A DNA stretch of 64,000 nt from Chloroflexia bacterium (GTDB lineage: Bacteria; Chloroflexota; Chloroflexia; Thermomicrobiales; CADCWN01): assembly GCA_046328475.1 (NCBI GenBank), contig JAXLWN010000007.1:20001-84000 (forward strand), given 5' to 3'. Of this stretch, positions 3,564-56,834 are shown in pieces. The first letter of the stretch is position 1; each line of letters begins with the position of its first letter. A model generated the notes under the pieces. It ran no database searches and was not told the DNA's origin. It saw only the letters and a program-made list of their open reading frames with translations. The position numbers and the translations under genes were made by a program.

Positions 3564-3894
3564 ATGCGCTATTTCGTGCTGGCACTCGAAACCGGAGACG
3601 CCCTGAGCGACGAGGGGCTGCCGGTGGCCTGGGCAACCTGCCCCGACCTCCCCGGCGCTGTACGAGGAAGCTCCCACCGCCGACGAGGCGCTGCAACAGC
3701 TGCGTGCTCTCGCGCACACATCATCGCCGAGCACATCGTGCGCGAGGATCCCGCTCGATCCGGCGATCATCGACACAAATATGCCGCCACCCAACGCGTC
3801 CGACCCTGACACGCTCACCATCGCCATAACCGACGAGGAGATCGAAGCCGTCCGCGCCCTGCCGCTGCTGACGATCGAGCAGCCGGAACCGTAA
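3564..3894 (+). pseudogene. HicB/UPF0150-like antitoxin remnant split over two reading frames
   Basis: MRYFVLALETGD..GLPVAWATCPDLPG resembles the HicB-family N-terminal motif (..PDLPGC..). The expected continuation (EAPTADEALQQLRALA / IIAEHIVRE / IPLDPAIIDTN..IEQPEP*) alternates between the 3564 frame and a second frame that ends at TAA 3892-3894. This implies at least 2 frameshifts. The assignment is weak and motif-level only. Confidence 0.35.
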
Positions 3895-4055
3895 CGAGTG
3901 CGGGAGTGCTGAGTGCTGAGTGCTGAGTAAGTCGAGTCAATACCGTGGTGATAGAGGGGCGGCGAAATGCTCGCCGTCTTCTATCACCAGCACCGTTCGT
4001 ACTTCTATCACGGGAGACACTCAGCACTCAGCACTCAGCACTCCGCACTCGTTAC
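3891..4055. repeat. 38-nt inverted repeat built from (GTGCTGA)3 heptamer arrays around a 90-bp core with its own hairpin
   Basis: The left arm gtaacgagtgcgggagtgctgagtgctgagtgctgagt (3891-3928) and the right arm actcagcactcagcactcagcactccgcactcgttac (4019-4055) are reverse complements apart from one extra G. The inner hairpin runs 3948-3987. Confidence 0.9.
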
Positions 4056-5083
4056 GCTGGCACGTAGAGGCGCGGTGCTTCGACGTAGTCGTCCATGTCT
4101 TCGCGCATGTAGATGAAGGTCGCGCCCTCCATGTTGGTGGCGGCGGAGGGGTTGCCCGCGCGGTCGAGCGCGATGATGTTCATGCGGCTGACCCACGGGC
4201 CACCAAGCGATTTCAGGTCGTTCATCGATTCGAGCAGCGCGGCTTCCAGCGTCATCCCCATCTTCATGTAGAGGACGACGCTGTGCGCGGTGGCGCAGCG
4301 CATCGCCATCTCGCCGTGCCCGGTGCAGGCCGCCGCGCCGTAGCGGTTGTCGGCATAGTTCCCGGCCGCGATGATCGGGGAGTCGCCGAGCCGACCCGGG
4401 TACTTCCACGACCAGCCGCTCGTGCTGACGCCGCAGGCGATGTTGCCATCCTTGTCCTGCGCGATGAAGTTGACCGTGCCGGTCGGGCGCTCCGGATCGG
4501 CCGCGCGCCGCGAGAGTTCGGTCATCTTCTCCATGAACAGCGCTTCGCCGGGAGAGTACTCCGTGTCGCGGCGCAGCCCCTTCTCCCAGATCGCCTTCGC
4601 CTCCGGCGTCAGCAGGTCGCGCTCGGGAAAGCCCTGGTCGCGCGCGAAGCGGTCGGCACCCGCGCCCACGATCAGGACGTGGGGCAGCTCCTCCATCACC
4701 TTGCGCGCCACCTCGATCGGGTGCTCGATCCCGTGGATCGCGCCGACGCAGCCCGCCGCCAGCGTGTTGCCATCCATCAGCGAGGCGTCCAGTTCGACCT
4801 CGCCCAGCAGATTCGGCAGCCCCGAATAACCGACGCTGTGATCCTCCGGGTTGCTCTCCACCGGCTTGATCCCGGCCACCACCGCGTCGAGCGCGCTGCC
4901 ACCCTGGCGCAGCACCTCCACCGCCTGCTTGATACCGACCCGCCCGTTACTACTCGCGACGACGATCACCGCAGCCCTCCCCACAGATCCAATTCCCACA
5001 ATCGTGCGCGTTGCGCCGACCACGCGCATTCTACCCGATGCGAAGAGCTGGCGAATGTCAATACAGTGTCGCATGAACCTCAA
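4052..5083 (-). CDS. Asparaginase-2 family Ntn hydrolase (glycosylasparaginase / isoaspartyl peptidase-like)
   Basis: The motifs TGTVNFIAQDKDGNIACGVSTSG and PGRLGDSPIIAAGNYADNRYGAAACTGHGE match the autoprocessing Thr and active-site regions of the family. The true start may be the internal Met at 5029 (MRVVGATR..). Confidence 0.85.
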   Translation of the reverse strand: MRFMRHCIDIRQLFASGRMRVVGATRTIVGIGSVGRAAVIVVASSNGRVGIKQAVEVLRQGGSALDAVVAGIKPVESNPEDHSVGYSGLPNLLGEVELDASLMDGNTLAAGCVGAIHGIEHPIEVARKVMEELPHVLIVGAGADRFARDQGFPERDLLTPEAKAIWEKGLRRDTEYSPGEALFMEKMTELSRRAADPERPTGTVNFIAQDKDGNIACGVSTSGWSWKYPGRLGDSPIIAAGNYADNRYGAAACTGHGEMAMRCATAHSVVLYMKMGMTLEAALLESMNDLKSLGGPWVSRMNIIALDRAGNPSAATNMEGATFIYMREDMDDYVEAPRLYVPA

Positions 5084-7140: not shown

Positions 7141-7290
7141 TTGGTGGGGGTGGCGGATTGAGTGCGGCGGTTTGGGTGCATCGGCGGTTGAAACCGCGCC
7201 TGAGGGCGACTGCGGTCGCCACGAAATCGCCCTGCGGCGGTTAGGTCCCAACTTCGAGGTGTGGCTCAACCCGCCCGTGCCAACCGCACC

Positions 7291-56664: not shown

Positions 56665-56834
56665 CGAGGGACGAGTCGTACGTCGTACGATGTAAGTCGT
56701 AAGAGGGGCTTACGGATTCTTCGCTATCGCTCGGAATGACACCACCGAGGGCTGTGCCTTGAGCAGGTGTCATTCCGAGCGCAGCGAAGAATCCGTCTCC
56801 CCTCATTACTCGTTACTCGTTACTCGTCACTCCC
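56647..56834. repeat. Nested palindromic element: outer heptamer arrays (GTAACGA/GGGACGA.. vs TACTCGT x3) enclosing a ~40-bp inverted repeat (..acggattcttcgct.tcgctcggaatgacacc / ggtgtcattccgagcgcagcgaagaatccgt..)
   Basis: Read directly. The inner arms are 56703-56743 and 56766-56804, with a 22-nt loop. Nine in-register heptamers lie on the left. Confidence 0.9.

Follow-up and report, generated by a model that had tools for sequence, protein, structure and literature searches.

The symmetric repeat that lies between two convergent genes in the window, the 64,000-nt stretch of DNA analyzed here, is very probably best explained, as a whole, as one member of a family of intergenic hairpins dispersed over the genome, the arms of which are tandem heptamer arrays resembling the cyanobacterial short tandemly repeated repetitive heptanucleotides (STRR) and the Xanthomonas heptamer repeats. 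The symmetry of the locus is a recurrent product of this repeat system and not the mark of a unique element. The genome, G000, is a Thermomicrobiales MAG of 7.23 Mb in 325 contigs, with 67.8% GC, in which 2,455 period-7 and 941 period-8 arrays were detected, compared with 209 arrays of period 6. Within the window, the heptamer array pattern produced seven matches, against none in 100 shuffles.

Inspection of the sequence and a repeat search both bore out the description, in the earlier note, of a 38-nt inverted repeat holding the TAA stop codons of both genes inside its arms, along with the core hairpin and the repeated CTTCTATCAC noted there (Table 1). When read in a 7-nt register from the stop, each arm resolves into five heptamers, TAACGAG/TGCGGAG/TGCTGAG x3, followed by T, and because the register begins with TAACGAG, the TAA belongs to the first unit of the array. 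TRF likewise reported GAGTGCT x3.6 in the left arm and CACTCAG x4.7 in the right arm. The 12-mer TAACGAGTGCGG occurs only twice genome-wide, once in each arm, so the two arms of the locus share one origin. With TAACGAG placed external to the GAGTGCT units, the locus runs counter to the module order that prevails in this genome (29:1). Only one other element (C235:11364-11530) is similar over the whole length, at 71% identity and with different outer ends; it combines (GAGTGCT) arms and inner AGGTACG/AAGTACG units with a core hairpin, GGGGACGGCGAACTGCTCGCCGTCCCC, that is followed by a T-run and, judging from its sequence, looks like a genuine intrinsic terminator.

Table 1. Features of the convergent locus, in window coordinates; inverted repeats are from the repeat search
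Feature	Position	Strand	Description
Remnant of conserved gene	3564-3894	+	~108-aa gene; final frame closed by TAA 3892-3894
Inverted repeat, complete	3890-3928 / 4019-4056		arms of 39/38 nt; one bulged G at 3904
Inverted repeat, outer perfect	3890-3903 / 4043-4056		14 nt
Inverted repeat, inner perfect	3903-3928 / 4019-4044		26 nt
Left arm	3890-3928	+	39 nt: CG + TAACGAG + TGCGG[G]AG + (TGCTGAG)x3 + T; holds left stop TAA 3892-3894
Core	3929-4018	.	90 nt between arms
Inner hairpin of core	3946-3989		stem 3946-3955 / 3980-3989
Weak terminator-like stem-loop in core	3958-3975	+	with a T-rich tail
Direct repeat CTTCTATCAC in core	copies at 3978 and 4002
cgttcgtacttc in core	3994-4005	right-arm orientation	remnant of inner AAGTACG/AACGACG-type unit
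Right arm	4019-4056	-	38 nt; reverse complement CG + TAACGAG + TGCGGAG + (TGCTGAG)x3 + T; holds asparaginase stop (complement of 4052-4054)
Asparaginase_2 gene (isoaspartyl peptidase / L-asparaginase type)	4052-5083	-	longest ORF 343 aa; PF01112, E = 6.1e-73

The arms pair as a 38-bp stem enclosing the core hairpin, with a predicted folding energy of -120 kcal/mol (z = -12.95) on one strand and -115.5 kcal/mol (z = -13.44) on the other, equaled by none of 200 shuffles; the bidirectional stem proposed in the earlier note thus stands. As for the accompanying contention that such symmetry is hard to obtain by chance, the fold and the array pattern exceed those of shuffled sequences, and the symmetry is not rare, with at least 15 other convergent gene pairs being organized alike. 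The long stem is not a classical U-tract terminator, because it lacks a flanking T-run. No T-run was found after either arm of the long stem, the sole candidate being the weak plus-strand inner hairpin with its T-rich tail, and a bidirectional Rho-independent terminator, which calls for a U-tract after the stem on both strands, was accordingly rejected. An Rfam hit to MIR1437 was below the threshold (50 vs 168 bits) and is an artefact expected of any long hairpin. When transcribed from either side, the stem would probably serve the two convergent mRNAs as a common 3'-end structure, where it could act as a barrier to exonucleases or a substrate of RNase III.

The left gene proved to be neither intact nor recognizably HicB-like, as it had been read earlier. 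Alignment of translations and nucleotides with intact orthologs from three congeners (L031-L033), which end in IExP[ED]P, uncovered three frameshifting indels, namely, +1 after DLPGA, -1 at LAH/IIAEH and +1 after REDP; either the gene has decayed into a pseudogene or the assembly is poor at this place. Pfam, including its HicB/UPF0150 profile, yielded no match at E <= 0.01 for the stitched protein, the best matches of the intact orthologs, to ABATE (E = 0.002) and DUF6894 (E = 0.36), were both below the cut-off, and no paralogs were found in the genome. The asparaginase has its best orthologs in Thermomicrobiales/Chloroflexia MAGs; these are 82% identical over residues 39-343, and the C-terminus, RLYVPA in the window protein, is conserved. 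Because they align from residue 39, the start is likely at 4969, and our own gene call spans 4052-4969.

Comparison of the orthologous sites in the three congeners separates the position of the stop codons from their identity (Table 2). The ends of both proteins are conserved whether the congener has no array, a plain hairpin or an array of another unit, indicating that the stop positions are native. Thus, the altered asparaginase stop or C-terminus that the earlier note had suggested seeking in relatives did not materialize; the ends are kept with or without repeats, including in the congener with an 11-nt spacer, where the asparaginase is one residue shorter than the other orthologs (RLY[IV]P[AE]). 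Genome-wide, using as the reference 1.19 Mb sampled from this congener, G002, C-terminal length was identical for 43% of genes with an array at the stop (n = 61) and 45% of genes without one (n = 348), and within two residues for 79% and 72%, respectively.

Table 2. The orthologous convergent site in the window genome and three congeners; protein ends are given up to the stop
Genome / locus	Asparaginase end	Left gene end	Spacer
G000 (window)	RLYVPA	TIEQPEP	157 nt, (GAGTGCT) arms + core hairpin
G003 / L033	RLYIPA	VIEAPEP	about 80 nt, (GAGTGCC)3.5 / 2.4 hairpin from TGA
G001 / L032	RLYIPE	VFEAPEP	97 nt, plain hairpin
G002 / L031	RIYIP	MIEVPDP	11 nt, without repeat

The stop triplets, on the other hand, are probably written by the array, because stop identity tracks the adjacent unit: TAA stops adjoin 44 of 87 TAA-containing units vs 80 of 461 other units (OR 4.9, p = 2.8e-10). 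The claim that the element supplies both stops therefore probably holds for the triplets, but not for their positions. Certain junctions between stop and array recur ('TAA cgagtaacgag' and 'TAG cgagtgctgag'); a single fixed register of the stop codon relative to the unit phase was nevertheless rejected, as several registers are represented among the junctions. Stop-side arrays contain a stop triplet in the sense strand in 54% of cases and in the antisense strand in 12%; the remaining 46% of stop-side units are without a stop triplet, so a three-frame stop is not universal. Start-side arrays contain ATG, GTG or TTG in 9.6% of mRNA-sense strands vs 46% of the other strands.

The 134 distinct period-7 units are led by GAGTCGT (277), GAGTAAC (274), GAGTGCT (193) and AAGTACG (174). 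An AGT core is common to the most abundant units (GAGTCGT, GAGTAAC, GAGTGCT, AAGTACG, CAGTAGT, AAGTCGT and others), and switches between units within arrays keep this core in register. According to our own gene calls, on which the rules of location and orientation are based, 2,670 of 3,043 arrays (88%) are intergenic, compared with about 24% of the DNA being non-coding. The 373 of 3,043 period-7/8 arrays that lie mostly within called genes could represent insertions in frame, errors of gene calling or pseudogenes. By spacer type, arrays occur in 24.5% (divergent), 27.4% (tandem) and 29.4% (convergent) of cases. Among 2,243 period-7 arrays, copy number has its mode at four (562 arrays with three units, 1,272 with four, 201 with five and 44 with six), and the median array length is 31 nt, or about 4.4 units. 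Most of these arrays (2,085 of 2,243) are devoid of GGG/CCC and have a median of 4.4 units, vs 4.3 for those with GGG/CCC. Of the 1,315 stop-side arrays, 52% have their first base in the interval from -10 to +3 nt relative to the last base of the stop codon, with a peak at -2, and 67% start no more than 10 nt downstream of the stop. Start-side arrays end 9-20 nt 5' of the start codon and thus adjoin the Shine-Dalgarno (SD) site.

The arrays follow rules of polarity and order that are near-absolute. Read inward from the gene, GAGTCGT appears in one orientation at 203:2, GAGTAAC at 133:6 and GAGTGCT at 107:3, with a consistency of 97-99% per family. In its 5'->3' direction, the G-rich strand points away from the gene; the inward-read strand has more G than C whatever the type of spacer (277:18 in convergent, 78:11 in divergent, 344:15 and 561:61 in tandem ones). 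As for module order, GAGTCGT lies outside GAGTAAC at 35:0, and GAGTGCT lies outside GAGTAAC at 29:1 and outside AAGTACG at 15:1. From outer to inner, the families succeed each other as GAGTGCT and GAGTCGT, then GAGTAAC, then AAGTACG, GGCGATA and CGAAGGTT. There are 182 (GAGTGCT) arrays of at least 2.5 units, and a second array of another unit nearly always follows inward. Outer arrays are more perfect (p = 2e-7), but this difference vanishes within families and is thus a family effect; the idea that arrays are layered by age, the youngest lying nearest to the gene, failed this within-family test and was rejected.

Pairing of arrays into hairpins is also systematic. Among 1,916 array clusters, 294 contain an inverted pair of arrays of the same unit and one contains a separated direct pair; both stops carry arrays in 23 convergent spacers, with the same unit inverted in 15 of the 23. 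Genome-wide, the inverted symmetry ends at the array edge and is not longer than in cross-locus controls, and variant units are shared between the arms of one locus in 34.6% of cases vs 29.7% for arms of different loci, which is not a significant difference. Extension of a palindrome in situ was rejected on these two grounds. The sequence between arms can itself be repetitive: a REP-like motif, GGACCTCACCCC..GCCGCCTGCGGGCG (e.g., C295:24757-24790 and window 7180-7260), the 12-mer of which has 66 copies in the genome, is often the core between heptamer arms, and a nested palindrome with GTCATTCCGAGCG..CGCTCGGAATGAC, the 13-mer of which occurs seven times in the genome, is located between GAGTAAC-type arrays at window 56700-56800.

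Across the order, the arrays have a patchy distribution, with the (GAGTNNN)x3.5 pattern being found in 51 of 151 genomes sampled, including 12/12 in family f5, 5/6 in f1, 25/67 in f4, 7/20 in f2 and 1/45 in f3. Turnover among congeners is apparent as well. The congener G002 (4.2 Mb, 96% complete) has no match to the pattern and two period-7 arrays in the 1.19 Mb sampled (L121-L180). Three consecutive GAGTGCT units are matched 195 times in G000, 66 times in G004 and not at all in G001, G002 or G003, and three consecutive GAGTGCC units are matched 26 times in G003 and five times in G000. At the orthologous asparaginase site, the hairpins of G000 and G003 are each built from the unit variant of their own genome; they are either homologous or independent. 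Seven convergent pairs are conserved between G000 and G002, of which two carry arrays (spacers of 244 vs 105 and 175 vs 38 nt), too few for statistics.

How the locus came about can be read in several ways. The earlier note favored a prefabricated palindromic element, inserted or copied whole between the genes, which replaced their ends and now supplies both stops. The 12-mer TAACGAGTGCGG and the rare variant unit TGCGGAG, each mirrored in both arms, and the use of TAA at both stops in a genome where only 17% of genes end in it agree with such an insertion, but we regard it as unlikely, given that the C-termini and stop positions equal those of congeners lacking the element, that there is no donor copy (the single whole-length relative being divergent and having other outer ends), that, across the genome, inverted symmetry is confined to the arrays, and that sharing of variant units within a locus hardly exceeds that between loci. 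The locus is thus not a discrete mobile element copied as a unit. A more specific version, in which the locus is an IS630/Tc1-type MITE with a TA target-site duplication (..CG-TA-ACGAG...CTCGT-TA-CG..) and terminal inverted repeats, would account for the TA at both ends and for arms that resemble long terminal inverted repeats. It is very improbable, because the arms consist of generic tandem arrays, which recur at 182 sites in combination with many different partners and cores, full-length copies do not form a family, the outer 12-mer is unique to the locus, other array junctions carry stop codons or SD sites instead of a constant TA, and array lengths are quantized by 7 nt.

Ordinary simple-sequence repeats that expanded locally by replication slippage, starting in the arms of an already present terminator hairpin and with no dedicated process, would be expected to yield the perfect tandem units, the fast turnover among congeners and the cores resembling old terminators, yet this origin, too, is quite unlikely: the copy-number distribution peaks at four instead of declining monotonically, a few units are common to hundreds of loci, unit repertoires are genome-specific with strict polarity and module order, and G002, similar in its genes, is virtually devoid of arrays over the 1.19 Mb sampled. 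That an assembler created a chimeric palindrome at a repeat is barely credible, even though the genome is a MAG of 325 contigs, since the arms are unequal by a single base, the core lacks symmetry, synteny with the three congeners extends over both flanks, and a similar architecture is present at the orthologous site of the independently assembled L033 and at 294 such loci in G000.

Under the preferred reading, that of a genome-wide family of heptamer hairpins, the arrays would have been added to pre-existing short spacers by polar, length-limited copying, to which simple slippage or a cut-and-paste transposon appears to be a poorer fit. Older terminator-like hairpins of the ancestral spacers would survive as cores, and selection at the level of translation would retain only the copies that respect the stop position and the SD site. 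A TAA, TGA or TAG of the array itself would then become the stop, with all three frames closed within 21 nt. More speculatively, and rather doubtfully, the arrays might be written by an unrecognized lineage-specific process that places NAGTNNN heptamers at gene boundaries, in blocks of ~31 nt (about 4.4 units) and with fixed polarity, from genome-specific templates and often at the two ends of a spacer simultaneously. A polarity in which, on both strands, the G-rich strand points 5'->3' toward the spacer center is the trace expected of templated 3'-end extension at a break. If this DNA-writing scenario is true, the symmetry of the convergent stops at the locus would be the footprint of one two-sided event.

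Neither an enzyme nor a template that could account for the proposed copying was found. A RAYT/Y1 transposase was rejected as the mobilizer, because the presence of Y1_Tnp (PF01797) is not tied to that of the arrays, with no co-variation across the 151 genomes of the order; family f5 has arrays in 12/12 genomes and Y1_Tnp in 4/12, and family f3 has arrays in 1/45 and Y1_Tnp in 24/45. The sole RVT_1 match in G000 (C134:85-1311), a 408-aa protein encoded on a 1.9-kb contig and containing a YADD motif and a maturase-like C-terminus, looks like a reverse transcriptase of the group II intron type, which we take it to be, and was on this basis rejected as the writer of the arrays.

Several known repeat systems share some of these features. 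STRR comprise several heptamer units per genome, are dispersed and intergenic, have no known function, and several of their units contain AGT, as do many units in G000; the STRR belong to another phylum with a different base composition and are not known to show systematic hairpin pairing, stop anchoring or a module hierarchy. Tandem intergenic heptamers are present genome-wide, with a preference for four units, in Xanthomonas (GGGAATC) and Nostoc PCC 7120 (GGGGA(C/T)T), as described in a study that also cites the STRR of Calothrix PCC 7601 (Rehm et al. 2015, PMC4692102). These repeats adjoin the 5'-neighboring ORF in any orientation, lying within 50 bp after the stop (sense) or before the start (antisense), some overlap the stop codon, and 70-75 convergent pairs form inverted repeats; the four-unit preference was attributed to G-quadruplexes (PMC4692102). 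The arrays of G000 are similarly tandem, 7-nt, dispersed, intergenic and stop-proximal, with about four units and a fixed polarity relative to the ORF, but they comprise over 130 different units instead of a single one, are concatenated in strict order and begin on the stop codon itself. Furthermore, GAGTGCT and TAACGAG contain no G-run, and, with the four-unit mode seen in arrays without GGG/CCC, the G-quadruplex rationale cannot apply in G000.

The TAACTGA repeats of marine Beggiatoaceae, cyanobacteria and Bacteroidetes occur in two to six copies, mostly in intergenic regions, and are phylogenetically patchy, with no known mechanism (MacGregor 2015, PMC4679880). In forward orientation, TAACTGA provides stops in three frames, and 13 sets overlap the stop of the upstream gene; it is a single unit, mostly in sense just upstream of starts, where it replaces the RBS, and a single inverted repeat is reported (PMC4679880). 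G000 differs in having many units and common hairpin pairs, and in that, upstream of starts, it is the C-rich strand, free of stops and starts, that lies in sense. Integron attC sites, characterized by R''/R' core sites (RYYYAAC / GTTRRRY), extrahelical bases, a neighboring IntI and a cassette array, also come to mind, the ends GCGTAAC and GTTACGC each being one base off by eye and one G being bulged, but the occurrence of about 1,900 clusters between ordinary genes in all orientations argues against such sites. REP/BIME/REPIN elements are short intergenic palindromic units, often arranged as inverted doublets between convergent genes and mobilized by RAYT (Y1), and in E. coli REP-type elements stabilize mRNA 3' ends. 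Unlike these, the arms in G000 are tandem heptamers rather than a conserved imperfect palindrome and do not track Y1_Tnp. Our search of one literature library for tandem repeats in Thermomicrobiales retrieved no paper on repeats of this kind.

Taken as a single instance, the locus carries a modest practical message, and it is the repeat family as a whole that is of higher interest. Neither an origin nor a function is generally accepted for the heptamer repeats that border genes in Xanthomonas, cyanobacteria and Beggiatoaceae, and the Thermomicrobiales genome G000 is an extreme case of the phenomenon, in which the four-unit preference is independent of G-quadruplex potential. Because the congener G002 is almost free of arrays, a comparative-genomic search for the responsible factor is feasible. 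For annotation, the arrays matter in that they define the stop codons and 5' leaders of hundreds of genes and can mislead gene callers.
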